A stretch of 63,186 bases of DNA, filler included, from Diploschistes diacapsis (taxonomy: Eukaryota): the NCBI GenBank assembly GCA_023645945.1. It is 21 parts of 21 records of this genome, joined end to end, with 100 filler letters (N's around TTAATTAATTAA, not from the genome) between each part and the next. Parts side by side here need not be neighbours in the genome. Positions count along the whole stretch, not along the records: positions 19,537 to 38,969 come from JALAIB010000371.1; 20 more parts are not named here. One strand, 5' to 3'. Position 1 is the first letter of the stretch, and every line of letters begins with the position of its first letter. Shown here one piece after another: positions 7,284 through 38,969 of the stretch. Position numbers and translations under genes: made by a program. Under the pieces are notes generated by a model, which was not told the origin of the DNA, ran no database searches, and saw only the letters and a program-made list of their open reading frames with translations.

Positions 7284-10200
7284 ATGGAGGTTGAACACAA
7301 AGAAACTATAGGTGATGAAAGCCAGGCGCTTATCCCAGCCTGCCATTGTTTCCCGGATCGCTTTCAAGAAGTCTTGGAGTGGGGCAAACAATTAGCAGGA
7401 CACGCCGCTAGAGTACTTCCGGATTACGCAGTTATTAATTACTTGGTAGTGGGCAGACTTGTTGAGCGCGCCACTGCGCTCAGCAACTTCTGCATTAGGG
7501 ACTCAAGAATCATTGCTCTTCGGGGCGACACAGGGCAGGGTAATAGTTTATCACGCGGTTGAAGACCTTCTTGCTAATGAACGGAAGGTAAAAGCAGCCT
7601 GATCAACTCCTTGCTCGATTGTCCAGGCTTGGCAGAAACTGTAAGCTGTTTATCACGATCCGGTGAACAGCGGCTGAACATCTGAAGTCAGACTGGGGTA
7701 GGGGCTGTACTACGGTCGTTGCCGAGTACCGATATAAAGCCAATGCATCGATAGCACCTTTCAGGGTTGAGTTTCTATTTCTAGCGGGCGCCGAAATAGA
7801 TAAGATGATAGAAGAGCTAGTCTACAGCTATCGTCGCACGAAGATACCTGGTGTCGAGGATGATGATGATTTCGAGGAATTTCAAAGAGAATCGCAGGTT
7901 GCCTGGTGGAGTCTTGAGTCTGCATTCGGACATAGAGCTGGGCTCAAGACCTTATGTGACAACACAGGCGAAGGTGCATACCAAAAAATCGTCAATCAAC
8001 TCCTTGAATGGGTAGAGGAGATATCTTGGCCGGAAGGGTGTGATGCCGGTGTTTGGGGCGAAGACTTTCACACCGCACGCGAGGTTTCGGACAAGATCTC
8101 GGCTCTCACGGAAAACAGGCTTTGGCCCTTTACGAAGACAACGCGGTAAGACTCCCTGTTCTGACTGAGCCGATAAGTATCTCACCAAGTTCTTGGTAGG
8201 ATCTATCTAGACGCTCCTATCCTAAGGAACGGTGTGATCCTTGTAGACTTGCCTGGTATGTACGGAAGACTTCGTGAAATGAATACGTCAACTAAACCTT
8301 TTCCAGGGCAGCGAGACGTCAACCTAGCGAGATTGCAGATGACCAAGGAGTACCTCTTACGGGCTGATCATACATTTATAGTAGTCGACATAAAGCGTGC
8401 AGCATCTGATCAGTCATTGAAGACTGCCTTATTAGATGAGCTGAACAAAGAAGTAGATTTCAAGACGGGATCGAATGATATCCGTAGATTGGATGCGACC
8501 ATCGTCTGCACCCACGCTGAGGTAAGCAGGTTGAGTACTCCAAGCAACAGTCCTCATTGATGCAAACTAGGACCTTAATATCGTTGAAGCAAAGAGGAAG
8601 ATTCTCAAATTTCCCAGCAAGCATGCCCGAGTGGTTGCTGAACTGGAAGTTGCACTTGGTCAAGCAGGAAGATCCGGAGACTGGACTACAAAACCTACGT
8701 TGGAAAAAGAGTAAGTTAAGAAAGTCTTTGTAAGGTCCGAGGTAATAAGTTATTGTTTCCAGGCTAAAGCAGCGGTTGATGAAGGCTCGTAACGAATCTA
8801 TTCAGACCGACATACGAAAGGCCTACGAAGAAGAGCTTAGAGGAAGCTCGCTGGATATCTACTGCGTTTCCAATGTCGACTACGCCGAATTTGCAGAATC
8901 GGGAAATGAGGAGATAGCAAAAGCCTCGGGCATTCCCCAACTTCACCAACACTGTTATTCAGTCATTTCAGGAGCAATGTTCTTCGAAACCGAAAATTTC
9001 CTTTGCGCAGAACTTCCTGCTCTCTTGAAGTCGATCGAGTTGTTCGTGGATGCACTACCAACTGGAAATGATCGACCTACTAGACATTTTGGGAGTGGAC
9101 ACAGAATCTACCAGGGTCCCACAGTATCTGTACGAGATCCTCGTTGCTCGAGATCTTTAGCTGATTCGAAGTAGTTTGAGGACGCATTTGGGAGCGCCGA
9201 CCAGAATCTGAAGATATTCCATGACATATTCATTAGCGAGATGGGTACTGTCATTATAACTTTGTTGTAAACTATTGCTAATGCATGTGCATAGAGACGC
9301 ATGAGACCAGGTGGGACAAGTTTGCTTTGACCACAAGTGAGGTCTGGGAGAAGGTAAGAAGACGCCTTCATTTGCTCCTCAGAGGTAATACTAATAGACC
9401 ACAGTGGCATCATGGTAACTGTGAACGTATTTTTTAGGCCAGAACCTTTTCTGATTGAAAGTATAGCTTCCTACGCCACTTGGTGCAGGCATGACGGAAC
9501 CCACCAGACTCGCAAATGCGGTCCTGTCCAGTGGAACGCGGACCTTGGCAAGACATCAAAGCTATATATGCGTAGTCGATGGACCGCCCTGGAGAAAGGC
9601 GTGAGCAAGGAAGTCATGAAACTTGCAAGGGTTATTAAGAAACGGTTTACTGCTCTTGCAAACGGCTTCAGAAGTGTGTATCTTGCCCAAGAGGGGCTTG
9701 ATGGGGGTCATACTAAGCACATTGCGCAGAATCCTCGAATCTGTCAAGAGCGATACGTCTACAGCGTGGTTCTATATCACATCAGTTCAAAGCCGTCAAG
9801 CGCCACGCAACCAAGGAAATTCGGTAAGTACTGAAAAGCTTTGGTCAATATGCACCTACAGTCGCTAAGGCCATTTTACATAGAGTCCTTCGCAGGAAGG
9901 CACTGGAGGATAATCCAGAGTCTTTACTTCTGGATTACATGAGGCCTGCTTACCGCGATGCCGCTATGGAAATGGGTGAGTTCACAACTCTGTACCTCCG
10001 ACGATCGTTCCAACGTCCTTATCTTTGCCTCGCGCACCACCAGAGGAAGATCGTGCTAAGACCGCATAGGCATAGGCTACAATAAACGTCAAATCGACAT
10101 TGTCAAATATCAGATCAAGCGCGGCATCTTCAAAGCAATCCGTGAGAACCTCGATTGCAGTGTAGCGAAGTTGATCCAGTCAGGCTGTGCGCGCTTGCGT

Positions 10201-19536: not shown

Positions 19537-19556
19537 CCCCTAACACTCCCCCCCAG

Positions 19557-20457
19557 AACCCCAAAGAGGCCAACGCAAACGACCTTTCCATGCTCCTCGC
19601 CAATCTCTCCAAATCCGACTCGCTCTCGCGCCTCTTCGCCGTCCGCCGATCCTGCCCCAAGCCGCTGTGCACCTCCCCACACGCCCTCTCCCAGCTCCTG
19701 GACCTCTACGCCAAAGGCTCCACGGGATCCTACAACCCGCGCGCCGACTTCGCCTACCTTGCTTACGTCTTCGCCGACCTCGCCAAGCACGGCGAGGGCG
19801 CCATGTACTTCACCACCCGGCAGCCTTACGACTCTCTGCACCCCATCTCCAAGCTCTTGCCCTTCGCGTCGCATGCCTCGCCCGTCCGCAGACTGGGCGC
19901 CGTCTCGACCCTGAAGAACATCTCCTTCTCCACCTCTGCGCACTCGGTCCTGCTCTCCCCGCCCCTCTCCGCTCTGCCCTATGTCCTCCTCCCGCTCGCT
20001 TCGGGCGCGGATAATTACAGCGACGCCGAGGAGGCGCAGCTGCCGGACGAACTGCAATTGCTCGATGCGAGCGTCAAGCGCGAACAGGATGTGGGGATCT
20101 TGAGGGTGCTGTTGGAGACGCTGCTGCTTTGGACTACGGAGAGGCGGTGGCGCGAGGAGTTGAGGGAGAAGGGGGTGTACTATGTGGTCAGGGAGTGTCA
20201 TTTGGGGGTTGTGGATGAGGTCGTCAGGGAGGATTGTGAAAGGCTGGTCAATGTTTTAATGAGGGATGAAGAGGGAGAAGAACAGGACCGGGGGAGGCGG
20301 GCAGAGGTCGTGGGCCGGGCGGAGGGGATTGAGGGCGGTGGTGGGCCGGCGGGCGAGGGCAGGATGATCATCGGATCGAGTGGAGGTGAACGGAGGAAGG
20401 TGGAAGAAGAGGAAAAGCGATGAGGATGATGATGATAAGATCGTAGAGGTGCTCTAA
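19557..20457 (+). CDS. HGH1: HGH1 (eEF2 chaperone, DUF383/DUF384), 5'-truncated; last exon
   Basis: SMLLANLSK, YLAYVFADLAK, RRLGAVSTLKN, LPYVLLPLA, LPDELQLL, KRE, CERLVNVLMRDE. Branch site and acceptor lie at 19540-19556. The expected DDDDKIVEVL* tail needs one A removed from the run at 20413-20416. Confidence 0.9.
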
Positions 20458-20493
20458 GCCTCCAGTACTTTCCAATTCCGCTGAGCTAGAACA

Positions 20494-21723
20494 TCATAGA
20501 CCAGCCAACGCCCTCGCCTCCCACCAGTGCTTCATGGCCCTCACGTCGCACCCTTCCACGCCCCACGGCCAGGGCACGTACCATTCCTTCCCCTTGCAAT
20601 CTCGCGGATAGGCCTTCAAGCTCCCTCCATCCCACTCGTGCGTAGTCACGGACCTGAACAGCGCCACAGTTCCTACCTTGGGCAAGAACTCCTCCGCGTC
20701 TACAAACACCGTCAGCTGTACCTTCTTCGACGTGCTCGGATCCATGATGCGCAAATTGCGCGAGGGCGGCAGGTCGAGGTGCGTTAGATGAGCGCGTGTG
20801 ATAATATTTGGGGAAACCTCGGTGATCACGACGAGCACATTGACGACGCGGTTGCGCAGGAGCGTCTGCGGTGGGCCGGTGATCTTCGCGAGTTGGGTAA
20901 GCGAGAGCGGCCGCGCAATGGACTGAGAGCTTCCTGGGTTTGTTTGTGTGGTTCTAGATCCGCTACGCTTGGCTTCAGGCGAAGGCTGCGTCCTGGGTCT
21001 GGCGAGAAATGAGAAGCCAGAGGTTGATCGCGTACCCGTTGCCGCGCCGGTTTTTGGATGGGTAAAGGACGATGTGGTGTTGGTGATGGTGGTGGTGGTG
21101 TCATGTTTCTGTGGCAGAACCTTCCTATTCTTCGGCTTTGATGGTGTTGGCGAAGGGCTTAGCTCACTGAAAGACCGCTTGCGGCCCCGTTCTCCATTCG
21201 GGCTCCCACGTTGATCGCTCGGAGAAAGGTCATCGCTAGATTGGAGGCCTGGAAAAATCACGTTCTTTAATTTGGAACCAGGCGTATTCTTGGTCGGAGT
21301 TTCCGCAGGTGTTCTGCTTTCTTCAAGGATGAACGAAATACCATCTCGGCCGTCGTGGTCTACCGGCTCCATATCCTCTATGGCTAAGTATAGAACTTCG
21401 CCCTGCCCATTCCGTCTCTTCGCCTTCTCAAGGCTGTACTTTGTGAGCAATACCACGGACCCATCGCGAATAGTGCGCGATGTCACGAAAGGGTGTATCT
21501 CGGGCTTCAAGACCGCTTGAATGGTGTTTTGGCCATCACTTAGCCATAGCCGATAAGCCCCGTTCTCTTCGTCGTCATCGGATCTGTAAGGCACAACATG
21601 TATTCGATCGACCAGTAACCTGATCGGATTACCGAAGAACCCTGTCCGGACTATCTCTCTAATAACCGGTCTCAGGGTGATGCTGGGTTGTTCATGCGGG
21701 GCCCTGTCTGAGGGGTCGGTCAT
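20494..21723 (-). CDS. Uncharacterised protein with two putative OB folds separated by an S/T/P-rich linker
   Basis: 409-aa single-exon ORF. N-terminal AYRLWLSDGQNTIQAVL...GSVVLLTKY resembles an RPA70N-type OB fold. C-terminal VNVLVVITEV...LRIMDPS...VQLTVF...PKVGTVALFRSV...DGGSLKAY resembles an RPA/Pot1-type OB fold. Confidence 0.75.
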   Translation of the reverse strand: MTDPSDRAPHEQPSITLRPVIREIVRTGFFGNPIRLLVDRIHVVPYRSDDDEENGAYRLWLSDGQNTIQAVLKPEIHPFVTSRTIRDGSVVLLTKYSLEKAKRRNGQGEVLYLAIEDMEPVDHDGRDGISFILEESRTPAETPTKNTPGSKLKNVIFPGLQSSDDLSPSDQRGSPNGERGRKRSFSELSPSPTPSKPKNRKVLPQKHDTTTTITNTTSSFTHPKTGAATGTRSTSGFSFLARPRTQPSPEAKRSGSRTTQTNPGSSQSIARPLSLTQLAKITGPPQTLLRNRVVNVLVVITEVSPNIITRAHLTHLDLPPSRNLRIMDPSTSKKVQLTVFVDAEEFLPKVGTVALFRSVTTHEWDGGSLKAYPRDCKGKEWYVPWPWGVEGCDVRAMKHWWEARALAGL

Positions 21724-21994
21724 GGAAGTTTACGCGTTGAACAGCTTCTGGATCCTGAACGCATGGTTGGGGGAACTAAGATGAAGTAAAGTAATTTGAC
21801 CTGTTCGCGACGTGAAGGATAGCTCTTACACATCTACCTGATGTTATCGAAAGCTGCGAGATACAGCGTATGGGATCGCTGAAACCCGAATACAAAGGAC
21901 GCGTTGATGTCACCACTTCCTTTACTATTACTACAACATACGCGTTAACGAAACCCCGCACGATTTCGGTGGCGCTTACGGAGGTCGAGTCTCG

Positions 21995-22477
21995 ATGCCT
22001 GTAGGAGAGCCTGTCTTTGCTTCTTTAGACGTTTCCCCTTATACATACCACCAATGGGCAGCTGCCAGCGGAGATATAAGTGTAAGGCGCCCCTTTCTGG
22101 TATGGCGAGAGGAATGGGAAGAACAGGCTCAGAAACTAGCCGAGAAGTTACAAAAGTTAATCGAGATAATAGCAGATTTGCCGGAAAACGTCTGTCAAGC
22201 TTGCTATCGTTATTCTGCGTCGCTCGATTTCTACGTCCGGCATCTTGATCAAATCTTGACGCTCTCGATCCGCAGCGAGGATCCAATCATCTTTAATAAA
22301 TATGTTATAAGAGACTGTAACGTCTGCCCGGAGTCTCTTTATATAGCAAAAATGACACTGCTATGCTGCGATATCATCACAAGCCCTTATGCATGCTGTA
22401 GCAAGCAGCTTCATGAAAAATCGCCACAACTGAACAGTTCTGTTGCCATCTTTATCTGCCCATCTGCCAGACGCTAG
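21995..22477 (+). CDS. Hypothetical ORF or decayed gene, divergent from the OB-fold gene
   Basis: 160-aa ORF with a helical-looking segment (EEWEEQAQKLAEKLQKLIEII). No family recognised. Confidence 0.25.
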   Translation: MPVGEPVFASLDVSPYTYHQWAAASGDISVRRPFLVWREEWEEQAQKLAEKLQKLIEIIADLPENVCQACYRYSASLDFYVRHLDQILTLSIRSEDPIIFNKYVIRDCNVCPESLYIAKMTLLCCDIITSPYACCSKQLHEKSPQLNSSVAIFICPSARR

Positions 22478-22927
22478 CACAGCGCTGAAACGATAGGTAT
22501 GTAATTGTTGTGATGAAGTTCAGAGAACCTTAAGCAATAAAAATATTTTGATCTAAGCTTCTCTACCTTGTCCACACTGCCGCTCTCTTTAAAGAAGCTT
22601 ACAAATTCCGCACCGTCAGCAGCGTACGAGGGGTGGTCTGGCCCTAGCTTTTCTTCATTGCCTGCAAGAGCCCGCAGCTACAATCCCTGCGTCCTTGTCA
22701 TGAGATAGCCTGAATAGATCAGATACGATATCTGATTTTATTTATATACATCTTGTCTCCCACCGCCCGCTTCTGGATCCCGTGCCATATACCATCATCT
22801 CCAATTTGAATTAATAATGGAGTAGCTTAGTCATTTGAGAAACCCATAGAATATAGAAACCACGTAAATTAGATATATAAGGATAAATCGCCCCAAGGTG
22901 GTGGGTGGGGATGGAGGTTTGTCTTTG

Positions 22928-25900
22928 CTAGAATTTGCTTAATTCAAATCTCACGATCGTTACTGCGCCAGAAGCCGAGCCGATCACCAGCCCATTACCT
23001 AAGGAATCAAAACAGTTGTTTCGGCGGTTGTGTGGAAGCCATAATGCTTTTCTCCCGTTGACCGTTACCCAGTGATGATCGATCAAAATCGTTTTCGAAC
23101 GACTGCCTAAGGAAGTTGCAATCGGATCGACGAGGCCCGAATGGCCCTCCAGCGTCTGCTGCGGCGATCCCGTCGCCGCGTCCCAGATTCGTACTGTATT
23201 ATCTTCGGACCCGGACACGATCTTCTGGCCGTCGGGCGAGAAAGCCACGGAACTGACGGGCCCCGAATGGCCCTGCAGCGTCTGCTGCGGCGATCCCGTC
23301 GCCGCGTCCCAGATTCGTACTGTATAATCGTAGCACCCGGACACGATCTTCTGGCCGTCGGGCGAGAAAGCCACGGAAGTGACGGGCCCCGAATGGCCTT
23401 GCAGCGTCTGCTGCGGCGATCCCGTCGCCGCGTCCCAGATTCGTACTGTATTATCCCAGGACCCGGACACGATCTTCTGGCCGTCGGGCGAGAAAGCCAC
23501 GGAAGTGACGTACCCAGAATGGCCATTCAGCGTCTGCTGCGGCGATCCTGTCGCCGCGTTCCAGATTCGTACTGTCTTATCCCAGGACCCGGACACGATC
23601 TTCTGGCCGTCGGGCGAGAAAGCCACGGAACTGACGGACCCCGAATGACCCTGCAGCGTCTGCTGCGGCGATCCCGTCGCCGCGTCCCAGATTCGTACTG
23701 TATTATCCCAGGATCCGGACACGATCTTCTGGCCGTCGGGCGAGAAAGCCACGGAAGTGACGGACTCCGAATGGCCCTCCAGCGTCTGCAGGCAAGAACT
23801 CCACCCTTCTTCTACAATCGGTTTGAGAGTAATCCATTCCGGCTCTTCGTTCTTGAATAGTTGGCGTGTTACACTACCGACTGGACAGAATATAAGGGCT
23901 GATATATAAGTTTGCAAAGGAAAGGCTTCGACGATGTCTTTGTTTAAAAGAGCAAACCGGCGCATATCCTCCACCAGATCAAGAAGCGGAGAAGGCGTAG
24001 GCATTTTCTGGTCTTATTAGTATCAGGTCAGCAAATGGCTTTCAATGAGACGGGCGTACCTGGAGTTGGATCAACAATTTGCTGATTGCCCTTATTCCAT
24101 CTCCAATATTACCCATCAGAGACAAAGCTTCCAGCCAGTGCAGAAAATGTTTTTCGAAGAACTTCCGAACCTTTTCTTCGTCGCAACTTCCAACTTTCTC
24201 AAAACATTTGTCCACAGCAAGAAGATGGTCGATAAAATAGACGCACGAATACCGGAGTCGCTTGAGTAAATCCTCTTCGGGGATTTTGATTACAGTCATG
24301 GAGACTGCAGGGTCCTGTAAGTTAAATATATCTCTCTTAAGCGAAGACATCCCTTCTATGGACTTGGAATAGACGTTGTAGTGCACTTCCGCCGCTCCAG
24401 AAGGAAAAATCTCGTCTAACGCATTCTTCAGTACAAAGTCTTTGGCCGATTGATGGACAAAATAGACAGTGGTTTCGCGGATGGTAAGGAACGAGCCGCA
24501 CTGCTTTACAAGCTCCTCCAACCAGATTGGGTTGTCAGCAAAGCCATCTGGCATATGCATGAGCGACAATAGCTCACCAAGCGTGATAGGTCGGTACACA
24601 ACCGCAGTCAAGGCAAGGATTTGCTTGAGTATTTCACTTTCCTCGGAATTGCAAATCAGATTCATCATCCGCTGATATAGAGGCTTAAGGCCAGGCGGAT
24701 ATGTTTTCAGGGTCGCAAGAGTTTTCCATTTAGCTGTACTCGCCAGATTCTGACAAACCAAAGCTACCCAGAGGAATGTGCCATTGGCATTCGAGAGCAG
24801 ATATTCTTGGACAGAGGCCTTAGTACTGTCGTCGTATCTCTTCATTTGAGTAAGATCATTAACTTTGTGTTTGACATAGTTATTGACAGCTTCGGAAACG
24901 GACTTTACGTTGAGCTCTAGAGATAGGATTACCTTTTCGTCTTGTTCTTGCAACCTTTCCTCGATGTCCGGCCAATTGCGACTGGACACGATCCACTTGA
25001 GATGAGAAGAGAAGGACAGTGATCGAACAATAAGGTCAAGGAGTTTTGATAGCTCGATCGCACATTCATCCAAAGCATCGACAATCAGGTAAACATTTGC
25101 CAGTATGGGATCTTGTGTCATGTCCATAAAAATGTCGGACAAAGCGACCCAGGCATTGGCATCTTCAAATAAGCCTCTGCCGGCTTGATCATATCGCGCC
25201 CGAACGTGCGAGATGAGTGATGGGCATTGTTTAATAAGCAAGTAAATTAGACCGCGGAGCACAGCTGTGGCAGTGTTGATCCTGGAATCGGTTGCTTGGC
25301 AGAAAAAATATGAGAGAGGCTTTGTGGAGGAACCCTCTCCCTGTATTTCGTCAATGATACCACAAAGTAGCATTGTCTTGCCTTTCCCGGGGTCGGCCTT
25401 GATCCAAAGCAATCGGCTTTGGTTGTCTGTCCGCCACCGTCGAAAGTCCTTGGTGTCAAGGACCCAGCGATATGAATCACGCAGCAGTCCGCCTTTGGTT
25501 TGCTCGATGCGTTTCTTGTCATCGCGTGGATCACTCACATGTAAATGCCGAAGGCAGTCGTTATCCTCCGTGCTCATAGCAATTTTGGCAAGCACTTCAA
25601 TGTTTGCTGTGTTCTTTTGGGTATTGTACGCCGAAGAATCCAGTTTGAAGGCCTTCTCTGCATCTTGAATGTTCTTTAGGCTGCCGTCCCAGCTGTCAAG
25701 TTTGACTGTATCACGAAGAAAACTGAGAAATCTGTTCCGATAATACGAGCAGACACTCTTGATCAGGTATGAGAGAAGTTCTTGGTAAAGGTGCACAACC
25801 CGCTTTTCCAGTTGGCTATGCATTCCCGCAAATGATCTATCATCGCCCGTAGTGTGTTTGAGAAGCGGGCGAGAGAGTTCATCGTACCACTTCATCCTAT

Positions 25901-26549
25901 GGATGACGTGGTCTAGTCCGTCTCGATTCGTCTTGCTTTCGGTTGTAGGATTGGTGAAGATCTTTCAACGTTAAAATCCGGTCTAGAACGTTACAAGTCG
26001 CAGACCCACCTGCAAGGCAAAGCACACCCCGGTCCAAGCAAGCGCAGCTTGCGGCATCGCTTGTACTGCGGAGCTCACAACATCCTTCACTGAAAGCATC
26101 TTTTGCATAACCTCTCCAACACTTTGTTTGACCTTGGCTTCCTTCTCCGTTCTTGCCAGGCCAGTCTGAATCAACTTGTCCATCTGAGACCGCCTCTTAG
26201 AAATATCTGTCTGCTCGATCGAGTTCTGGTATTTCAGAGGCTGATGGCCCGAGCTGTTGCCACTGAGCGGTTGCGATAAGACGGTCTCGTACGCGTCGAC
26301 CAATTTCGGCTCTTTCTGCTTAAGCTGATCATAGGCCGTGTCCCACAACTGCTCTGATGGATTTGGTGAAGATGCTGAGGTATTAGAGGACATCTTGGTT
26401 TCTGTTGCACGGTTCGTCGATGCATCGAGCGAGTCGGCCGCGTCACATTCTTGTTCAGCATGCTGATGTCTTCTCGAAGCCTCTAACTTCTGGTGATCAT
26501 GATTGCGGTGCAGCCTCGACTTTGAGAATAGCGACAGCATCCTATCCAT
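22928..26549 (-). CDS. NLR of NWD type (NACHT_N + NACHT + WD40; HET-E/HNWD-like), 3 exons
   Basis: LWDTAYDQLK (NACHT_N), Walker A WIKADPGKGKT, Walker B YLIVDALDEC, VSSRN, GTFLWV, FVHQSAKDF, FLHWLEALSL. Introns at 25962-26009 and 24008-24059 keep the frame. Confidence 0.93.
23159..23788 (-). repeat. Five near-identical 126-nt WD40 repeats inside the NLR (plus a partial sixth)
   Basis: Unit QTLxGHSxxVxSVAFSPDGQKIVSGxxDxTVRIWDAATGSPQ with an exact 126-nt period. Confidence 0.97.
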
Positions 26550-27100
26550 AATAAACACCGGTGCGATGACTTCGGTAGCGAATGTCAGGTATGGAAACTC
26601 AGTAGGCCCAGTCCAAGGTGGGGCAATTGCTAGCAAACATGAACAGCCACCGGCTTGACGATGTATACATAATAAGTTATTGAATTTTACTATCGTCGTT
26701 ATATAATACGTACGGCACTTTTTCATGCCTGTTTTTCATGCCTGTCAGTCGAAGGTACCGACCGATGTAGCAACATTCTTTAAATTTACACACCATAGTA
26801 GCTATAACGCTGATGATAATAACATTCTGAAACTACTGAACGGTCTCGAGGCTTAGATAAAAGTAACTTGCAAAATTCAGTATTACAAGCCCAAGACTTA
26901 AGGCCCATAGCGTGAAAAATCGCGATTTGCCGTCGGCAGAGGGCCTGCGTAATACAGACGTCAGAGTAACAATAGGAACGTAATTTTTAATAAGAAGGTA
27001 CTTGTATTGTTTAAGACTAGTCTTAGTATAATATTTACGTATTTAGAATAAAAGCACTGACAAGTACGCGGAATATGAGTTACTTAAAGTTAAAATACCT

Positions 27101-27150
27101 ATATTCTGTCTCGATACGGCGGGCGTCTCGGTACGCAGGGACGGACGTTA
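27101..27150. mobile_element. Solo Fot1/Pogo-like terminal inverted repeat
   Basis: Ends ...GGGACGGACGT-TA with doubled internal motif GTCTCGATACG/GTCTCGGTACG. An AT-rich tract lies to its left, and no partner TIR was seen. Confidence 0.45.
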
Positions 27151-27179
27151 GAACAAAAACATCTGTCTCGTTATCTCGG

Positions 27180-27600
27180 AATTTCACCAGTTCCCCGTTA
27201 GTTTTCAAGTATCTTGAATCTTGATGAAAAGATAGGCTACGAATGATCGCATCAATCTGAATGGTCCGCTGAAGATCACCCGTTGCAGGGTCCCAGAGCT
27301 TGATCGTTTCATTTCTGGAGCCGGACGCCAGCTGCTTGCCGTCGGGCGAGAAGGCTATCGTATAGATCGAACCCGTAGTCCTATAAGCCTCCGTGATCTT
27401 GAACAGAAGCTCCGCCAGCTCAGCGCCATTATGTGCCTTCGGGATCCTTGAGAGACCAAGCAGGACGTCCTGACAAACGAGCCACAGAGGCGAAGCTCCC
27501 AGACACAGTCTCGATAACAGGAAGGAGGATCATATATACAGCAAAAGGTTGCCTCCCCAAGCTCGGACCATACATTACAGAAAATAAGAGTTTCTCGAAG
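27180..27600 (-). pseudogene. Chimeric relic: hAT-transposase-like fragment reading in frame into a terminal NWD WD40 repeat
   Basis: One frame reads WLVCQDVLLGLSRIPKAHNGAELAELLFKITEAYRTTGSIYTIAFSPDGKQLASGSRNETIKLWDPATGDLQRTIQIDAIIRSLSFHQDSRYLKTNG. Confidence 0.65.
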
Positions 27601-27971
27601 TAGAGAATATAGACATTTAAAGATACGAGGAGAGAAAGACCAGAAGGAAAATGTACGAAACCGATCGGCTGTAGGGTCTGCTTATATAAACCGGGCACTC
27701 TGCACGATGTCTGATTCAGGCCTCTTGTCGCCGTGCATGCGAGTCCCGGGAATATTTCACGTTCTCGAGAATTTGACACTCCTGTTCTTTGCTTGCCCTA
27801 CCCCGCCTGCGTTTCCCCTTCTTCGTCTAAATCATCTAAGTAATACATAAGGCTTTTCTCGTGACAAATCAGTACCATCCGTCGAATGAAATTGGAACCT
27901 ACAACAAGGGATTAGATTTCTTTATCGGGGTTTGCTTCGATAATTTAAGACTCTAATAAAGTCTTTCCACG

Positions 27972-29100
27972 ATGCCCAAGAAGCACGAGTCAATTGGTTG
28001 TATCCGAGACAAGCTTAACCATTCCATTTCCTCGAGGTTAGTATGTGTACAGCAATTCGGGATAAACCAAGAGCACCTCGCGAAATGATTTCAAGAGCTT
28101 GTCTGCCTCCGGAAGAGATCCTTTATTGGCCTTGAAATACAAAGCATTGGCAGAACAGAACCAAAAAAAAACGATCTTAAAGAAACGACATCTCGATCAC
28201 GGCGTGCTTTCGGACGGAGACTATGTAGCAGTTTCATGGAAATGGAAAATCCCGCGAAAAGCTAAATCTCATGACAACTACCTTATCGACTTCAAAAAAC
28301 AGGAACGAAGCTGAAGGCCAGTAAGGTTCGAGATAGTGTTCTAGACCGAGCTCTCAGTTATGCGGATTATTGCGGGTGTGACGTATTCTGGATAGACAAG
28401 GAGTGTGTCGGCCAAGGTGAGAAGGAAGAAAAAAAATCTAGCCATGCAGTCAATGAACTTGGTCTATCGTCGCAGCAAATTCCCAGCAGTTCTTCTAAAT
28501 ATCTATGTCGATTCTAGTCACGAGCTGCCAGCAATGGCGGCTTTGCTCGCAAACAGTGTTACCGATGATCGCGACATAGTAAGCAGCAATTCTACCTCCC
28601 AATGTCGCTAACAAGCCAGGACTATTTTCCTCGTTCTTAATAAGATCACCTCCGACTTATGGTTCAGTAGGGGTTGGACCTTCTAAAAGGATGACGTTGC
28701 ACTCCATATCTGATCTCACACGCTTCTTCGCTTGCGCAGCAAAAACGTAAAGCACATGCTTTTGATAACTTACGTAAAGAGCTTTGGATCAAATCTGTAG
28801 ATTTCAGAAGGAAGGTCAACAAGTTCTATCTTGAATATCAGCCACGAGGTAGGTTATTTCTTTATAATTCGATAGCGATATCAATTTTCGCTTCTTCGCC
28901 AGCGGCGGGATTCCTTGCGAGTAGCATATCGTTCCCTGTATGCTATATGAAGCGCTGGGGCCCATAAGCAAACTGGTATGAAGTCTGCGCCCTCCAGCCG
29001 TACTTCGACATTCGCACGGGCACCCTCGAGCTACTAGCTTCTGCGTTAGCCATGTTTCCGCAATATTGGGTTTGGTATGTACATACACGTCTACTATGAC
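27972..29100 (+). pseudogene. HET-domain (PF06985-like) pseudogene
   Basis: GDYVAVSWKW, VRDSVLDRALSYA, VFWIDKECV, AMQSMNLVYRRS and LWFSRGWTF* appear in order across stops and frameshifts. End coordinate approximate. Confidence 0.85.
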
Positions 29101-29428
29101 GAACCGCTAGGCACGAAGGAGGTATTGACGACCAAGAAGACGACCAGGAAGACAGTATACGCCGCAATAACCAAAAAGACGTCCTGTTTACGCGCCATGA
29201 TGAACGTAACAATGCACATGCCAAAGAACTGAGTAAAGCATAATATCACCACGAGCTACAAGATAGGCTGTGCGTTCGTAAGATAAAGGATGCCAATCGG
29301 TACGAGCAGCAGTAACGTCGCTATGAACGTCACGAGCGCGTTGAGCTATCAGCCGCTAACAAGATAAGATAAGATAAGATAGGATAACTCATTCTGATCA
29401 CGTGCCATCAATCTTCTCGAAAACTTCA

Positions 29429-30084
29429 CTACGGCTTTGGCACCCTCTCTCCTTCCGCTTGAGTTGCTTCCACTCGCCCCTTTTTGCCCCACCAGTCAAG
29501 CACCTCGTCGAAGACGTGCTGTCGTTCTAGTTCTTGTTCGTGCTTTTTAGTGTCCTCATCGGCATCCGTTAGCTTGTTATCAATCGCGGATATTAAGCGC
29601 ATGCTAGGTCTGGGCATGCATGATGTCGACGAAGAGGGTATGACCTTAGAAGTTGGGGTGGCGAGAAAAGTCTCGTCGGGAATGAGGGGAGAGTCCAGTA
29701 TCACCGCTTATTGACACCGGTGGTGCTTAATCCGGGTAGTCTTTGCCTAAGGGACCGGCAGCGACGATATGGTTGACGGCATGGACTCCAGGCCCAATAT
29801 TTGGCTGAGTGAGGGTTATGACAGCCCTTTACGAAGGGTCATCTCTGTAAAATTGTGATGACTTGGGAACCAGTTCCGACAAGGCCTTGGCTTGAAGGCG
29901 GATTGTGTTTGCGACCAGGATGTCAATATCACCGTAGTCAACTTTGCCAGGTGCCTTAATCGGAGACTCTACGTGCCTGAACAGCTTCCGCAGTAGACAT
30001 AAGTAGTTCTTGAAAGTAGAGCTCTGGGAGAAGGCAAGGGGGAAAAAGAGGCGGATTGCATTTCGAGAACGCTTTACCACCCAT
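29429..30084 (-). pseudogene. Relic of a fungal MGGxAF...KxDxGDID putative nucleotidyltransferase
   Basis: MGGKAF start at 30084, then frameshifted FRHVESPIKAPGKVDYGDIDILVA (GDxD pol-beta-like motif). Later segment ERQHVFDEVLDWWGK. Appears internally deleted. Confidence 0.6.
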
Positions 30085-30399
30085 ATTCATTCGTGGAAGT
30101 ATGGGTGCGGTTGAAAGACGAAATATGCTACGAAGCCGATAAAGAAGTGCAGTGTTTTCCACTCACGAGTTTTGGTTACGATCACCATGCCATAGCCGAA
30201 GAAGGAATGAGCGACTCAATAATGGACGAGATACAGCCGCAATATGTGTGAGATACCAGGAGACACTCTGTCAAACTACGGCTAGAGCCCATCCATGTGC
30301 TAGACGTCTCTGGATGTACAATCGTTGGAATCTCCACCGATGACCCTATTGAGTCTCAGATCAGCCCCCGAGATATACTGCCAATACTAGATTCGAACG

Positions 30400-31767
30400 G
30401 GAATCTACAGCTGAGTTCAACGATGACATCCTGCTTCACAGGTAGATGGGCGATCACACCTAACCTTACTGCAGCTGGTGGTCGACGTATAATGACTTTA
30501 GCAGCTGCTGAGCCCTAAAGTATCTCCGAATCGTGGCCGGCGTTACAGTCGCTGGGTCGCCAATATGGCTCATTGTACATTTCTGCGGTCTTCAGCGCGC
30601 TCCAGACACGATCGATGTTGTGGAAAGCACCCGCTCAACTTCTAGATGGACACCAAGCCTTTGCAAACAAGATTCGGCAACAGCTAGAGCAGGTAGTAGG
30701 CCCAAGTTTCAGCACCGTTCATGACATCAAGTTCGCAGCTCAGGGAGATTTATGGGAACAAAAATAACAAAAGCGTGTTGGTATCCCGCTGGAGTATTAC
30801 CGAGGACGTCCCGACGAACTACAAAAGAAACTGCCGAAACTGATCGACGAGACCCATCTTAATGGATCTGCGAGTCAATATGACACCGAAGTATAGGAGG
30901 CAGGACAGCCTTTACCACAGTCTTCTACGATTCCAGCAATTGCCATGAGTCGGTTCAGTAGTTGCTTGCGTGCAGTCAAGCGGCAAAATAGATGTCAGGC
31001 AACGGCCATATGGCTTCCTCGATCGGGACGTGGCAGTCTTGCTCAGAATACTCGTGTGCATAGGAAATTCAAGACTAGTATTTGTCAGCCCCAGAGCATT
31101 GTGGATGACGATCCTTGGGAGACAATACTTATAAAATGGCATTATCGTTAGACCCTGATTGCTATAGCTCGGTGCCCTATTTTTGATTTCAGAATTGACT
31201 ACCTCTTGGCAGATCAGTGGGATAAGACCTATGGGTCCTAGATATCAGTAAAGTCCAGGAGAACCGCAACAGTTTTAACAGAATCCGCGGACTCATCGTG
31301 GTTGCGAAGATTTTTCCAGAGCCAACCCGGTTTACGAACAAGGCCGGCCCTGGACAAAGCCATCAAGACATATGGCTGCTGCGCTGTGTGACAGCGGCAG
31401 GGACTTTAAGGCTATTGAGGTCTTGATTGAACACCCCAAGCGAAAGTCTCAGCGACGGTGGAGGCTTATGGGAAGGACATCATGTCCATTCGATCTGTGG
31501 CATTCTAGGACGGGCAATAGTCCAGTACGATTAGATTGTTTACCAGGAGATTATCTACTCCCGCTAGACTATAACGCACAAGATCCGCTGTTTCTGTTTC
31601 TCCTGTCCGATCTACTTCGCATACTCTCACCGTCCAGATCTAAAGGCGTCCTTTCAACAATGGGCTCGAGTCCTTCTCGTAAGCGCAAAGCGCATAGCAA
31701 AATAATGCATAACTGGTTAGCAGAGGTAAGACGAGATTCTGTTTGTTATTATTCTTGTGGTCTTTGA
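30400..31767 (+). pseudogene. Degraded fungal hypothetical-protein gene
   Basis: VHDIKFAAQGDLWEQK*QKRVGIPLEYY resembles a recurring fungal F(S/A)AQDDxW...R(T/S)GxPL motif as recalled from memory. Fragmented frames follow; boundaries approximate. Confidence 0.4.
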
Positions 31768-34700
31768 AACTTTTGCTATGCCAAAACTTCGAACACCCAA
31801 TAACACAAGGGCAGGTGGTAAATGACATTTATTTCCATACAAACTTATACAGAAGCTATCAGTTTAACAATGAGACTTCTGAGGAGGTTATAACTTAACA
31901 AAAGCTTCCGAGGAAGCTGTGTACTCAGCTTATGAGGCATCACTTACTTGCTTTCCCCTTATTGAATAGGCATTGCTATGTGCTCTTTGCTCAGTTTATC
32001 ACTGGCGACATGGTCCGCTTGACTTAGGTTGCATCTCACCTATCATGCGGTTATGATGCAGTTAGTGTCTGTTGTCGTTGCGTCTCCTTCACGACATCTG
32101 TCCATCTTTCCGAGATTTTTCTCTTTCTTCTATATTATCGCTCCGGTATACGCCTCGAGCAGCACTCACGTTTACATTTTGAATCAATTCCTAGTCAATT
32201 AAGAAAGGCTATGAATCTTCTTCGGGATCCGTTCCAACCCCTCTTCGACTATGTGTATTGCCAGTTTCTGATGACCTACCATCTAGACAAAGAAATCTCT
32301 ATACAAACTGCGTATGCTCCTGTTTATTTCGCAATTGCTTTGCTGGAAGCTCGTATCCAGCTTACCAACGTTCCCTCCTACCCTTGACCCCTTCAGCTGG
32401 GCCTTCAAAACTGCTGCCAGTAGGCCCGATGAGAAACCAAAGTCTCTTGCTTGAACAGAGCCATGAAGCATGCGGGCGCACCCTTCCAGTATACTTACAC
32501 CGCGCTATACGGGCTAGAGGACTCGAAGATCATGAATATTCTCCTTGGAACGTTTCATACGTAAGACTAGACCTCGAAAGCTCACCAAACTGCTTTCTCA
32601 AATACAGGCTTCATCGAAGCGACACATGCAGACCAAAACTTCTTATTAAACTAATTGTCTGTGTGATATCTCGGACAAGAGTCACGACGACAAGATTATT
32701 CTACTAATCATAACAGATATCGACTAAAAAAACGCTCAAAATAATATCAGATGCGAATTATTACTATGCACTTGCGAACTGATTCTCCATCATCGTCATC
32801 ATAGCTATAGAGCACATGTTTTTTTATGGCTAATCAAATTGAGTCAAACTCTCTTCACTGGCCATTCAATAATGTACAAACGATGAAAGATATCAAAAGA
32901 ATGATACACCGAGAAAGCTTACCAGCTCTTGCAATGCTCCTCGGAGCCACTCATGCCAGTATGGGACTGAAACGATCAGTGAGTAGCTAGTTCATAGGGA
33001 CTCCTCCAGCTATCGTCCTTCCAGATTGACTCCTGGAAACGACATAAAAGAGAGACGTCGGCGAGCCGAGTAAAGTCTAGAAGATATTCCTTCGTTGGAA
33101 ATGACAGAACCCTCGTCTTCTGACATGCCTGATGTTTAAGATGATGTGTCCCTTCAATAAAAATGATAGGGACCTTTCGGGATCAACATTACCGATGCTT
33201 ACGGTATCTGCCTATATTGAAGCTGTAAGCTCTGCCCTCCTGCGGGTATCTGAAGATGCATTCCGCGTCGAGAATTCGATGACGAGGTTGTTGGGGATTT
33301 CAAGAACGCCGCGTTGCCTCATGTATATCGGCGGCAATCTCGGCACTCCTAGTCGGTACCCGGCGGTATTCCTGTCTTTTTATGAGGCGGGAATTTATTG
33401 AGCAGGCCGAATCTTTTCCCGAATTACCTACCTGCCTTTCGTTGAGGGGAGGTGACTCCATATGACCGTCCCCCTTTCTTTTTTCTCGTTGTCCAAATCC
33501 TCGACCTCCGGCATCAGTATTACTGTTGAGATTGGTTCCTCCACCTCTTGGTAAGTCTTCGCGAGGATTTGTTCGATGAAGATGCGGTCTTTAATCTTCA
33601 ACGCGGCACGGGATCTTTTATCCACATTTTTGTTCTGGATAGCAAAACTACATTTCTTTCGCTTAACCAGCATTTCGGCGCTACTGGTCAATAGTCTCCG
33701 GACTCCGGCTAGTCTCTCTAATCGGTCTCTTGCCATGAAAGTTCCTCGTCGCTGCTCGAAAACGCAGAACGGACACCTCGAATCTTAGCCTCTTTCCGAG
33801 TACTTTTTTTCATGCTGCTTCGCTTCTGGATCTTCTTGCTAATGTAGGAAGCACTGTTTTTCTAGGAACTTGCCGCAACACATGAATGGGACGAGGATGT
33901 CCTACTTTAGATCCACGGTTTCCGGGCGGATCCTACACTCATGTATGTCGCGGAAACCGAAAGCATCTCTTTGCTCGTCTCGCGATGCAAGAAATCGACA
34001 ATTTGTAGAAGCAGTAAGTACGTAGAAGGGTTATTTGCCTGAAAGCGACGATTCCCAACCAGCCTCGGGTCCCGCTATGATTGAAGATGCTCGTTGCTGA
34101 GAAAGTGGTGGAAAGTGAAGGAAATTGTTCTCGAATTCTGTTCTGTCCATAGTAGATGATGCCCGTTTTGATACAGAACCCCCCGGGTCTCGTTCCGTTC
34201 ACATCACTGGGCGAAGAGTATCTTCAAAGGCTTACGCCACTCTCTGCGTCGAGCAATAGCCTCGAAGGCTGGCTTGAAGTATCAGTTAAACAAGGAGTGT
34301 AAGACACAAGTATCTTTCTTCGAAATTTGTTGCCTAAACTACTCATAGCGAATAGTACCCTCAAATGCCAACAACCTCATCCCAGGCAGCTCCTGTTACC
34401 CCTGGTTTCAGGAAGCTCATGGCCTTCCCGTGCCAGTCCCTACGCATAGCCTTGAGTGCTGAAGTGTCTTGGGCTCGCAACTTGGGGCTACTTTGGTCGA
34501 AGGAGAAGGTGCAAAGAATTATGCGTTGGTGACGCATATGCGCATATCGTCGATGCAAAGACTGCCGTTGTTACTCGGATCCCAGGCGCGAAACGGTGGG
34601 TTCAGAGGCTTGATAAAGAACAGAACAGGCTGGCTTTTGAAGCGGCTTCGCGAAGAAACATATTGGCCCAAAATCAGACGCCCAATTAGTAAAAATTAGT

Positions 34701-36130
34701 GTATTAACGAGGGGGCTTATCGTAACGATGCTGTCATTCTCCGCGAACCTTTCCCGGCGACGCTTCGGCTTAAGATTCCCACACCTGCTTCCATCATTCC
34801 TTCGCTTACGCCTCGTTGCATGAACGTTTGCTATGCAAGAACAAGATTAGCTGGAGGGTGTAGGCGCAAGTCAAAGAGACTCATCTAAGCTTCCTCTTTG
34901 ATGGCACCATTTCTGGAAGTCATATCTCGGGCCAGCTTGCGTGGAAGGATGTCTACTCATCTTACTCGGTCTTCGCAGAAATGCGCCCATTCCCCTAAAA
35001 ACTGCGGATGAATCCGGCGGCAGGTTACCGGCGTCCGGTCTGTAAGCCTCTGTGCTCCTGGTCCCTCTACCCAATCGTTTCAGAACCAAGTTGGGCTGAA
35101 GCAGCCGTTTGTTTCGTAAAGTAGGCTTGAAAGTCTGCGACTTCTTGAAGACCCTCCTGCAGTCTAATACATATGTTTGCTGGAGCTTCTCTGGGGTTAG
35201 ATACCACACACTGGAAATTGCCGGCTCTATCCCTTTCTTCGATTGTACAGAATTGATGTACTGAACAAACAGAAGTCGAGGACTGGATGAGAATGTGAGC
35301 TTGTGTCCGATCCCCTCTTGCTTATAGGCGCTACGATGAGAGCCGAAATATTGATTGGCTATTGCTGCTATATTAGAATTAAGATAAACTAGACAGTGGT
35401 CAAAGCCAAAGTAAGAAAAGGCCATGGAAATAAAGATGACAAGATGGCCGACAGGTGAGTAACATGCTCAGGGGTGCTATCGTAAGTTCACTTACTACCT
35501 ACCGATAATAATACCGACTGCCCGGCACAGTCATAAAAGTTGCAATATATCAGATCGTGCGCGCATCCTTGTACTACTCCATGGATCGGTTATATGTATT
35601 ACCGTCGATGTCAGGGATCATTTGCCAGAAAACGGGGATCTTGTATGATTCAGGGAAATGTGCGACGGTTCATCGACCTCAGAAAGAATAGGAGGCTGGT
35701 ATTTTGCCTTTCTCATCGAAAATGGAGGGTAAAAGTAGAGGCAAAAACGTAGAATACGGGGCGTTACGATAGTACAAGAAAGAGCAAAGAGCGATGACCT
35801 ACACTAACTGTGGCGAGTCCAGTAGTAAGAAGCGGCGATACAAAGGTACGCAAGCTGAGGCCAATCTAAGGCGACGTGAAGGAGTTTCAAGCCCTGATGA
35901 TACCCTGAAAAGGTGAGCGCGAGGTTGACAAGATCACGAAGATACTTGACAAAGAAGTCGTCGTCAAATCCGGTTCATGCCAAGACCGGCGGTTTGCTGA
36001 GAGCTCAAGCTTTTCTTGAACAACTCATTCTTTATTATTGTCTCCTCCGGCTCACTCATGCAACTTCATGCCCCAGCGAACTATTCACGATTCATCCTAC
36101 TAGTCATTGAGTACTTTCTGTTACAGCGAC

Positions 36131-37358
36131 ATGGCATCTGGATCCCGCAGTCCTTCACGAGGTCGAAGCCGTACGCGCACTCCTGATCAGGGCGCACGTC
36201 CTACCTCTCAAACTCCATCCAGATCCCGCACCCCTCGTCGCACAGTCTCTCCACGATCGGTCTCGTGCTCACGGTCGCCTTCTCGTACAGGTTCAGACCG
36301 TTACCACAGGAACGGACGCGGAACGCGCAGCAAAAGTCCAATAAGGGATCGAAGCAGCGAAGACCGGCGGTTCCGTGAAAGGAGTGCTGGGCGCAGTCGC
36401 ACACGCAGTCGTAGCATTGGGAGGGATAATGCTCCGTTGAAGAGCACTAAAGTAAGTGCTGTAAACATTTTAGAGGCTTCAAGCATGTACTAACAAGCTT
36501 AGGTCGTGGTAGAGAAGCTCACTAAGAATGTTAATGAGGGTCACCTTCAAGAGATCTTTGGGTCGTACGGCTCAATCAAAGATATAGACCTTCCAATGAA
36601 CCGGCAATGTCAGTCAAGCTCTCAATTCCCTTTGCCCTGTGTTTGCCCAGCCAATTCCACGCCCCAGCCTCTAACCCTTCCGTGATGCTAACTGATCCCT
36701 CACTGCAGTCAATACGAACCGCGGCACCGCATACATAGTCTACGCCGATACCGCTTCAGCAGAGTCCGCCATCGCTCATATGCATGAAGCGCAACTCGAT
36801 GGCGCCGTCATCAACGTATCCGTCGTTCTTCCTCGTCGCAAGTTCTCCGGGTCTCCACCACCCGCCACCCGCGGCATCCCACCGGTGTACGCTGACCGTG
36901 ATCGTGAGCGCCCTCCACCGCCACCATCATACCGAGATCGGGTGCCGCCGCCTGCACACTACGGTAACGGCCCACCACGGTATCGCTCACCTCCACCACC
37001 TCGGCGCAGAACACCCCCTCCGCCACGAAGCTACGGCGGCGGGCGCTCAAGAGACTACAATCGGGATGGTGGCTATCACCGTGGAAAGGGCCGGGCAAGG
37101 AGCAGGAGCTATAGCAAGAGCAGGAGTCGCAGTTATAGCAGCAGGAGCAGGAGCCGCACACGAAGCAGGAGCCCACCGAGACGGTACGCTAGGAGAGGGA
37201 GTCCGACACCACCACCACCACTACCGCCGAGTAGAGGCAGAGGAGGACCACCACCGCGCAGAAGACGCAGCCCGAGCTATAGTTCGTATAGTAGCTACAG
37301 TCGCAGCAGAAGTCGGACGAGGAGCAGGAGCAGGGATAGGTATGGACGAAGGAGATGA
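36131..37358 (+). CDS. RNPS1: RNPS1-like SR/RRM splicing and EJC-associated protein, 3 exons
   Basis: RS-rich termini; RRM VVVEKLTKNVNEGHLQEIFGSYG...NRGTAYIVY...AIAHMHEAQLDG; two GT-AG introns. Confidence 0.92.
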
Positions 37359-38061
37359 AGGTGTGATGGCTGCAGTGGAGAAGATGCGCGCGGGTAAGAG
37401 GAGAAACAACAAAAACAACGACAACAACAAAACCGGCCTCGCTGCACTAACCATGGCAATCAATACTTGAGGTTGATCTGGCATGGTTTGCTAGTTGAGG
37501 GGGCCTTTATCAAGAACAATGCACAAGCCGATTGCAAGGCTGAGGCCACACGCTGGTCATATACGTGCTGTCATTGCTGAAGTCTAGCTGCCTTCCCGGC
37601 TCGTAAAATGTAAGATAGATGTTATTTGAAAGCCTAGGAAGCAAGGAAAACGAAGACCAAGTATTGATTTCGGCTCAGTTTTTACTGCTCAGTTTTTACT
37701 GTTGTAGCGAACTTTCTATTTTCTAAGAGGTACAGGCTTTGCATATCAGGGTGTTAAGGTGACAAGAGAATTGAAGTAACTTTTATACAAGCTTCACAGG
37801 TCAGGTTGTTGGCTGCAAGGAAAGCAGAGCTATTTCCGGGGTCTTGTTATTCCCTTCAGCGCTCCATACAACTACTGTAGGCTGACATTTAAGTAATTCT
37901 CAAACCTGAAAAGCGACACACCAAACTCTGATGAGCTCTAAAGAGAAATGAAATTCAGATTATGTAGTATCCCTGACTCGTACATCCCAAGAGCCTCCAA
38001 TCTTGCGACTCAAGCCCTACATCACCGTCCACTTTAATTCCAAGACCACGGTGCCACAGCC

Positions 38062-38969
38062 ATGTCCCTCTCAGAATACCTAGCAAGGAACTACCTCACC
38101 GCCGACTCAAAGCCCGAGAAGAAGTCCAAGAAGCGCAAGCGGAAAGACTTCTCCGAGGGCGTCACCATCGCAGAGGACGATGTATCCGGCTGGAAAACAG
38201 CCGGGACTCGGCAAGAAGACGATGACGACGGACCCCTAACAGGTACTTTACCACCCCCTACCATCCTCCAAGGGCTCACGAGCCAAAAGGAGTGAAGCTG
38301 ACACCGGTACCCCTCGGGGGCGCGCCAGTATCCTCCTCCCGGTCCGCCGAGTTCCGCCGATCCAAATCGTCCAACTGGCAGACCCTTTCCGGCGCGCCAG
38401 CCTCCCAGCCGCCTCGCTCTGCCCGCCCTCCTGCCGCGACTCGTGGAAGCCGCGGCGCAGCTGCAGCCGCCGCCGCCGCCGATGCGATCCTCGCCTCCGC
38501 GGCCGCCGAGTCTGCCGCCGCAGCCGCCGCCACCGCCCAGGACGAAGCGCCCGCCCTGGACCCCTTGTCCGCCACTGCACACCCGCGCTACGGCCTGCAG
38601 ACTGCCTCCCAGCTCGCGGCCCAGCTCGCCTCCTCCTCCTCCTCCGCGCCAACCGCAAACCCCATCGACGACGCCCGCGCCGCCGCCGCCATGGGCAAGG
38701 GCCAAGAAACAATATACCGCGACGCTTCCGGGCGCGTGATTAACGTGGCGATGAAGCGGGCGGAAGCCCGGGCGAAGGCTGCGGAGAAGGAGAGGGAGGA
38801 GGAGGAGGAGAGGGAGGCGGCGAAGGGGGACGTGCAGAGAAGGGAGAAAGAGGAGAGGAAGAGAGTGCTGGAGGAGGCGCGGTTCATGCCGTTTGCGAGG
38901 GGGGTCGAGGACGAGGACATGAACAGGGAGTTGAAGGATAGGGCGAGATGGGGGGATCCGGGGGCGGCC
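38062..38969 (+). CDS. BUD13: Pre-mRNA splicing factor Bud13/Cwc26, 3'-truncated
   Basis: MSLSEYLARNYLTAD, YGLQT, GQETIYRDASGR, KGDVQ, MPFARGVEDEDMNRELKDRARWGDP; one intron at about 38243-38328. Confidence 0.92.

Follow-up and report, generated by a model that had tools for sequence, protein, structure and literature searches.

A probable turnover patch around an intact NWD-type NLR gene between conserved genes of Diploschistes diacapsis

Introduction

Among fungal NOD-like receptors (NLRs), the NWD-type genes of Podospora are the closest described counterparts of the gene considered here. Those with WD40 repeats of high internal conservation (HIC), a term defined as repeats more than 85% identical across at least 100 aa (PMC4986451), show high turnover, translocation, association with transposable elements, repeat-induced point mutation (RIP) as well as many pseudogenised NWD remains (PMC13449251). 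Here we describe a gene of this type and its surroundings in Diploschistes diacapsis (assembly GCA_023645945.1), the genome of which is available as a fragmented assembly of 29.1 Mb in 4361 contigs. The analysed stretch of DNA, further called the window, comprises 63,186 nucleotides and consists of contigs strung together with N spacers between them; the interval in question, about 14 kb in length, lies wholly on one of these (G000:C3013, window 19537-38969, 19.4 kb). A preliminary description made from the sequence treated this interval as the decayed remnant of a multi-gene immune locus composed of a sensor, a cell-death effector and possibly a nucleotide-signalling enzyme. We consider it probable that it is instead a mosaic turnover patch built up around an NWD-type (HIC) NLR that evolves fast and is movable, and not the ruin of a single system: one intact NLR is accompanied by unrelated partial genes, which abut at their truncation points and have different histories.

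Results

The intact NWD-type NLR gene occupies positions 22928..26549 of the minus strand and is modelled as three exons (26549-26010, 25961-24060 and 24007-22928) encoding 1173 aa with zero internal stops. Its product combines a Goodbye-like NACHT_N, NACHT, WHD and WD40 parts; NACHT_N, NPHP3_N/NACHT and WD40 all score above the Pfam cut-offs (NPHP3_N E 4e-35, NACHT E 1e-15), the NACHT domain carries Walker A and Walker B motifs, and NACHT_N runs across the junction of exons 1 and 2. Intron 1 (window 25962-26009, minus strand) has 48 nt and ends at its 3′ side with AAG instead of YAG. Since NACHT_N has been classed as Goodbye-like, with a bundle of MLKL/HeLo type and a putative killing activity (PMC9815663), the NLR is predicted to carry its own candidate effector domain. 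The family is very large in ascomycetes (1825 matches at E<=1e-20 among 7995 candidates), and the closest homologues come from Geoglossomycetes with 56% identity over exon 2.

Five WD40 repeats with a period of 126 nt are found at 23159..23788 (minus strand). Pairwise identity between these 126-bp units is 91-95% for nucleotides and 86-93% for amino acids across 5 x 42 aa, which together with the Walker-bearing NACHT and the N-terminal domain of an effector class places the gene among fungal NWD-type NLRs with HIC repeats. Nonsynonymous and synonymous differences between the repeats are about equal in proportion (pN 0.065, pS 0.068), the changes being confined to eight residue positions. With an offset of +3, presumably that of the HET-E repeat frame, five of the eight variable residues fall on positions 11, 12, 14, 30 and 32, which are among the seven hypervariable positions used in PMC12222747. 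The repeat count of five is uncertain, because short-read assemblies fail to recover arrays of this kind (PMC12222747) and the contig of the best-matching public run, labelled lichen metagenome and possibly the source of the DNA, stops inside the array. When exon 3 was folded from its single sequence, the repeat part was confident and the tail stayed under 50 in predicted local distance difference test (pLDDT) score.

Upstream of the NLR, at 27080..27376 (minus strand), lies an orphan WD40 segment (WD40 E 6.5e-9) consisting of a last repeat and a divergent tail. In its best alignments it pairs, at 42-52%, with the final HIC repeat of NWD homologues and the tail behind it, and as it is just 35-48% identical in protein sequence to the repeats of the resident NLR, it derives from a different gene. 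Fifty codons are joined to this tail in frame (27380..27529, minus strand). They resemble a hAT transposase motif, a reading to which profile and sequence searches, including comparison with 9 hAT loci, gave no support.

Mobility of the NLR is suggested by close relatives. Contigs of two independent sequencing runs (X2 and X3) were aligned to 23830-38960 at 80% likeness; run X1 may be the source of the window and does not count as independent, and a fourth run (X4) contributed only short chance pieces. X2 contains both the flank and the interval's right half at about single depth, with 96.6-98.1% identity on the four single-copy pieces listed. The NLR, the DNA upstream of it and the WD tail (23830 to ~27560) are represented by many divergent records with summed contig depth of 628-1121 versus 77-79 on the flank. 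Up to 12 contigs carry the same change, the spectrum across the stretch comprises 570 C>T/G>A places versus 138 T>C/A>G, and a loose end reads on as an AT-rich, RIP-like version of the NLR. This suggests that the NLR block, single-copy in the genome under study, was copied several times and RIP-mutated in the X2 lineage; copying of a block is indicated because non-coding DNA is amplified along with the gene. Another loose end in X2, at 27375, runs into an additional WD repeat, which shows that a more complete parent of the orphan tail is present in that lineage.

Next to this block stands a HET-domain pseudogene at 27974..28841 (plus strand), truncated at its 3′ side and broken by frameshifts and stops. 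In six-frame Pfam scans of the non-NLR parts, with X set at stops, two frames gave HET matches that do not reach the cut-off (E 0.002 and 0.025), and the relic matches an open HET frame of 706 aa on contig C2946 (tblastx E 1.8e-21; tblastn over 28002-28841). It spans only about residues 62-347 of this relative and then abuts a piece of another gene. A partial twin with 83% identity lies on the AT-rich contig C511 and is itself RIP-mutated: 52 of 53 transitions run from C:G to T:A on the twin side, so RIP struck the twin and not the copy of the interval. The twin (L034, G000:C511:5471-5966) starts 16 bases ahead of the ATG and contains about 70 additional bases beyond window 28306. Cover of the HET site (27870-28879) is 0-2 in X2 and 0-0.3 in X3, and no contig spans the site, hence this is no proof of absence.

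The piece adjoining the HET relic is a 3′ fragment of a DUF6594 gene (28847..29343, minus strand; DUF6594 E 7e-10) comprising the last transmembrane helices and the 3′ flank. It duplicates a gene on contig C4143 with a 79% DNA match, one stop being present in the fragment; differences are distributed as 8/10/10 over codon positions, by which divergence looks neutral, with a mild C:G>T:A excess in the copy of the interval (17 vs 5, p=0.017). The gene on C4143 looks whole and is surrounded by unrelated genes, which we take to be WSC-like. In X2 and X3 the DUF6594 sequence is similar to the paralogue on C4143 and may stem either from that paralogue or from the site. The literature search on DUF6594 found no paper.

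Further to the right, at 29432..30083 (minus strand), a fragmented and weakly recognised relic resembles nucleotidyltransferases (NTases) of the Pol-beta superfamily, as judged from a GK..YGDIDIL motif visible in the sequence and one Atlas match, the top feature of which is 'DNA polymerase beta palm' (0.93), with PF14792 on 17% of the cluster members. Searches in Pfam, PHROGs, NCBIfam, PDB, the protein database and viral contigs gave no match, and one trivial match (E 7) came from a further search; in PADLOC the motif-bearing piece had no match and the C-terminal piece had one weak SIR2 match (E 0.045); a paralogue in the own genome was not found. CD-NTase and SMODS models gave no match with queries that are decayed pieces of 36-91 aa. 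The motif is Pol-beta/PolX-like, and nothing appears to indicate a cGAS-type enzyme. A fungal 'MGG.AF' NTase family may be a lead.

The next relic, beginning 210 nt from the NTase start, is a 5′-truncated pseudogene of a fungal legumain-like His-Cys protease (clan CD, C13-fold) at 30294..31452 (plus strand). It lacks a recognisable counterpart of the first ~125-145 residues, has in-frame stops at 30516, 30765, 30894 and 31149 and frameshifts near 31230 and 31327, and retains the Cys motif, while the strand preceding the His is damaged. Phmmer collected 120 matches (P0002-P0121, best E 1e-42; hhalign 99.9%), where a word-index search with the same frame had found nothing; because that search missed a family of this size, blanks obtained for the other relics are weak evidence. 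In the family alignment (A1, 90 rows) His145 is kept in 82/90 (7 gaps) and Cys189 in 87/90 (3 gaps). The intact homologue P0003 folds with pLDDT 89.5, and its top Foldseek matches are legumains (E 4e-9); VIA Z values are 21.6 for legumain (root-mean-square deviation 3.2, 241 aligned), 20.4 for PIGK/GPI8 and 13.7 for CHAT, so that in the structural ranking legumain and GPI8 are best and metacaspases next. The model displays a His-Gly...Ser-Cys dyad, and its helical C-terminal part aligns to plant prolegumain (337 residues, root-mean-square deviation 5.6). With the caspase-haemoglobinase fold present in the P0003 model and the His-Cys dyad conserved, the family resembles the clan CD/C13 peptidases. 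Among 30 members scanned, one passed the Pfam cut-off for C13, three more gave weak C13 and one weak C14 matches, and comparison of the alignment with PDB by sequence gave nothing below E 0.1. The relic is a member of a widespread ascomycete family of predicted legumain-like zymogen proteases without a Pfam model, probably cytosolic. No paper pointing to the family was found in a search of openly accessible literature. For a partial paralogue in the own genome, on contig C3949, a 10-kb stretch of that contig showed neither an NLR frame nor a HET frame.

Decay of the protease relic has gone further in X2. One X2 contig joins across 31222-31501, removing part of the C-terminal region of the protease; it also joins across 29667-30170, the core of the NTase, possibly with other sequence in between. 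The X3 piece over 31162-31567 shows gaps at 10 positions.

The remainder of the interval (31500..35450, strand not assigned) contains fragmented frames common to the two other runs at ~96-98%, with indels. Profile and sequence searches there, which included phmmer with one frame, gave no matches. A Cys/His pattern like that of a C2H2 finger is seen in one frame at 33431-33781 (minus strand), with no database support. The zinc-finger-like motif had prompted reading 33100-34900 as a Starship captain, and searches with captain profiles and loci gave this no support. At the opposite end an open reading frame (ORF) of 160 codons (21995..22477, plus strand) had no usable match in Pfam, PHROGs, NCBIfam or PADLOC and no tblastx match to the compared loci.

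Base composition of the interval (GC 0.43-0.57, where the window's short repeat contigs mostly lie at 0.25-0.35) and its dinucleotide indices match genic DNA, and the composite RIP index is at most ~0.1 throughout.

Conserved genes flank the interval on both sides. On the left are a gene with DUF383 (E 7e-53) and DUF384 (E 1e-18), which we take to be HGH1, cut by the contig start (19542..20423, plus strand), and an OB-fold gene in a single open frame (20494..21723, minus strand; Rep-A_N E 5e-6). On the right are an RS-rich RRM gene presumed to be RNPS1 (36131..37358, plus strand; RRM_1 E 1e-3, below cut-off) and BUD13, cut by the contig end (38226..38969, plus strand; Bud13 E 5e-22). The contig has no Rfam match. 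Elsewhere in the window, the first contig contains fragmented frames at 7667-10082 (plus strand), with DUF7605 matches at 9358-10082, and a P450 fragment at 1889-2194; broken accessory genes may thus occur on this contig too, introns being an alternative cause of such pieces. Window 39070-63186 is composed of ~20 contigs of ~1.2 kb, mostly AT-rich and with RIP-like indices, among which one GC-rich piece encodes the C-terminus of Mcl1/Ctf4.

The inventory given in the preliminary description holds in most parts. The single intact NLR, the orphan WD40 remnant, here assigned to another NWD gene, and the HET pseudogene are all recovered; further fragmented frames are present, two of which can now be named (DUF6594 and the clan CD protease); and the absence of heavy RIP, with relics mostly not AT-enriched, is borne out, the excess in DUF6594 being mild. 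The NTase-like relic stands on its motif and the Atlas palm feature but gains nothing from other profiles or databases, and an RNPS1-like frame does lie to the right of the interval but starts at ~36131 and not at 35450.

Whether such genes tend to be neighbours was assessed by counting. In the own genome HET gave 16 matches, spread over 14 contigs, and NPHP3_N gave 47, spread over 40; both are lower bounds in a fragmented assembly. One contig is common to both, with ~30 kb between them. For the protease, 40 metagenome loci were collected and 18 longer non-duplicate ones kept, and in 16 of these the scan covered 129 ORFs, each of them 140 aa or longer. In Pfam an NLR neighbour was seen at 1/16 loci (L058, a NACHT-ANK gene ~5 kb away), where 0.28 are expected (P=0.25), with HET and DUF6594 at 0/16 each; other neighbours are mostly housekeeping or metabolic genes. 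Tblastn of all 40 loci with queries derived from the interval returned one NACHT match, one WD40 match, which is TFIID_NTD2-WD40 by Pfam, and none for HET, DUF6594 or NTase.

Discussion

The structure of the interval may be accounted for as follows. Duplicated fragments and whole accessory genes would have landed in a tolerant gap between conserved genes, lost function there through point mutation and deletion, and been trimmed against each other; as the relics were in effect single-copy, RIP would mostly have spared them. A copyable block would be made up of the NLR, the DNA upstream of it and the orphan WD tail. If the NLR works as the NWD/HNWD proteins of Podospora do, its near-identical WD40 repeats, which unequal exchange would keep alike while a few surface positions vary, would bind a non-self ligand, after which NACHT would oligomerise and the N-terminal Goodbye-like helical bundle would signal or kill, so that the NLR could function with no need for the adjoining dead HET gene. 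The locus fits the Podospora HIC picture and is ordinary in kind. Fast turnover and genes of non-self-recognition types, as the preliminary description had it, are in accordance with this: the NLR, the tail of a second NWD gene and the HET relic do belong to such types, and the site turns over fast.

Alternatively, a Starship or some other large transposon might have inserted between the OB-fold and RNPS1-like genes and lost its recombinase, the decayed pieces being its derelict cargo and the NLR block having been re-mobilised in the relative. NLRs are conserved passengers of Starships, captain-less 'Derelict' regions exist (bioRxiv 2021.12.13.472469), lichen fungi have Starships with NLRs (PMC13486527), and the many RIP-like X2 records of the NLR block would agree with re-mobilisation. 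The genome itself contains 16 matches to DUF3435 captains on 10 contigs. These loci are numbered L075-L086 (G000:C3847, C4275, C791 and others), three matches on C3847 having no internal stops; hAT relics also occur elsewhere in the genome. Against this origin, which we regard as unlikely, six-frame scans of the non-NLR parts gave no match to DUF3435, DUF3723, ferric reductase or patatin; comparison of the interval with 12 captain loci and 9 hAT loci by tblastx and tblastn gave none either, though a far-decayed captain could escape detection; and no convincing terminal direct or inverted repeats are seen. A Starship or degraded Starship, as defined in bioRxiv 2021.12.13.472469, has a captain at one end and at least three auxiliary hits, whereas C3013 bears no captain and one of the four auxiliary types is present (NLR: one gene, one tail), so by this definition the interval is not a degraded Starship.

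Somewhat less likely still is the view closest to the preliminary description, that of one co-functional cluster in which sensor NLR(s), HET as the effector, the caspase-fold protease and the nucleotidyltransferase once acted together, and which may be intact in another lineage. Three recognised allorecognition gene types fall within 5 kb, the protease has the clan CD fold with both catalytic residues widely kept among homologues, one of which has a NACHT-ANK gene nearby, and fungal gasdermin genes do cluster with caspase-related CHAT proteases (bioRxiv 2021.06.03.446900). The protease is however legumain/GPI8-like and not CHAT, no gasdermin was detected, no CD-NTase model matched, and the pieces are partial duplicates with different histories, as DUF6594 on C4143 and the HET twin on C511 illustrate. 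Neighbour counts stay at background: HET and NACHT genes, contrary to what was anticipated earlier, do not cluster in this genome, where 1 of 14 HET contigs has a NACHT match and that at a distance, and co-occurrence around the protease family is not enriched in the small sample counted. The expectation of intact counterparts in relatives is not borne out for the protease, further broken in X2 and gapped in X3, and the idea of a former sensor-effector-signalling locus does not agree with genes duplicated in part from elsewhere. Least probable of all we consider the bolder version, in which the proteases of this family carry out cell death in fungi as caspase-fold executors that have gone unrecognised, the site being what is left of a movable NLR + HET + protease module.

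Several observations nevertheless weigh against a turnover patch. The NLR, the second NWD tail and the HET relic all lie within ~5 kb; a HET gene within 10 kb of one given NACHT locus has a chance of ~1%, though for at least one of 40 loci it is ~30%. Neighbours are undercounted in an assembly of 4361 contigs, where the family search missed even the HET relic of the interval, and ~4 kb of relics match nothing searched. The fold class of the protease executes cell death elsewhere, and killing by Goodbye-like domains is only predicted (PMC9815663). Summed contig depth in X2 does not amount to a copy number, and there may be paralogues among the X2 records.

If a turnover patch is what the interval represents, it is a further example, in a lichen-associated lineage that is poorly sampled, of Podospora-type HIC NLRs that stand amid pseudogenes, move and are RIP-mutated. 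The NLR block, single and intact here and apparently multi-copy and RIP-like in a relative ~97-98% identical, offers a natural pair for the study of NLR copying. The best side lead is the large fungal family of His-Cys proteases with legumain fold, apparently unannotated in Pfam and directly assayable; should it act in cell death, it would be a new caspase-fold branch of fungal immunity, and were the NLR + HET + protease module real, the apparently amplified and RIP-silenced NLR block of the sister lineage would be a live example of module spread.

Compared with known systems, the protease family shares with peptidase family C13 (legumain/AEP, GPI8) the fold, the His-Cys dyad and the helical C-terminal part, but identity is only 10-14%, no signal peptide is obvious by eye, and the copy of the interval is a pseudogene. 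Fungal gasdermin-protease clusters likewise have a caspase-fold protease gene near cell-death genes (bioRxiv 2021.06.03.446900), whereas here no gasdermin is detected, the protease is neither CHAT nor S8, and neighbours are not enriched. As in the 'Derelict' Starship regions and Tangerine of Xanthoria, an NLR stands amid accessory and decayed genes between conserved genes of a captain-bearing genome; the interval differs from degraded Starships in that no captain, DUF3723, FRE, PLP or terminal repeats were found and in its length of only ~14 kb. In HET and lineage-specific clusters of Neurospora a HET gene is also surrounded by orphan, fast-evolving sequence, but those clusters are subtelomeric and largely expressed, while the interval is interstitial between core genes and mostly dead (PMC10684091). 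The nearest likeness is to the Podospora NWD/HNWD NLRs (het-d, het-e, het-r and nwd). In HNWD proteins (het-d/e/r) HET is fused at the N-terminus, whereas here this place is taken by the Goodbye-like NACHT_N and HET stands apart, as a pseudogene of the opposite strand; reactive Podospora alleles usually have 11 HIC repeats, a number that forms two propellers, and three cryptic repeats, against five and a shortened tail here by a short-read count that is unreliable (PMC12222747). Common to both are NACHT and the near-identical 126-bp, 42-aa WD40 repeats, variation at few repeat positions (PMC12222747), and the company of pseudogenised NWD remains, translocation and RIP (PMC13449251).

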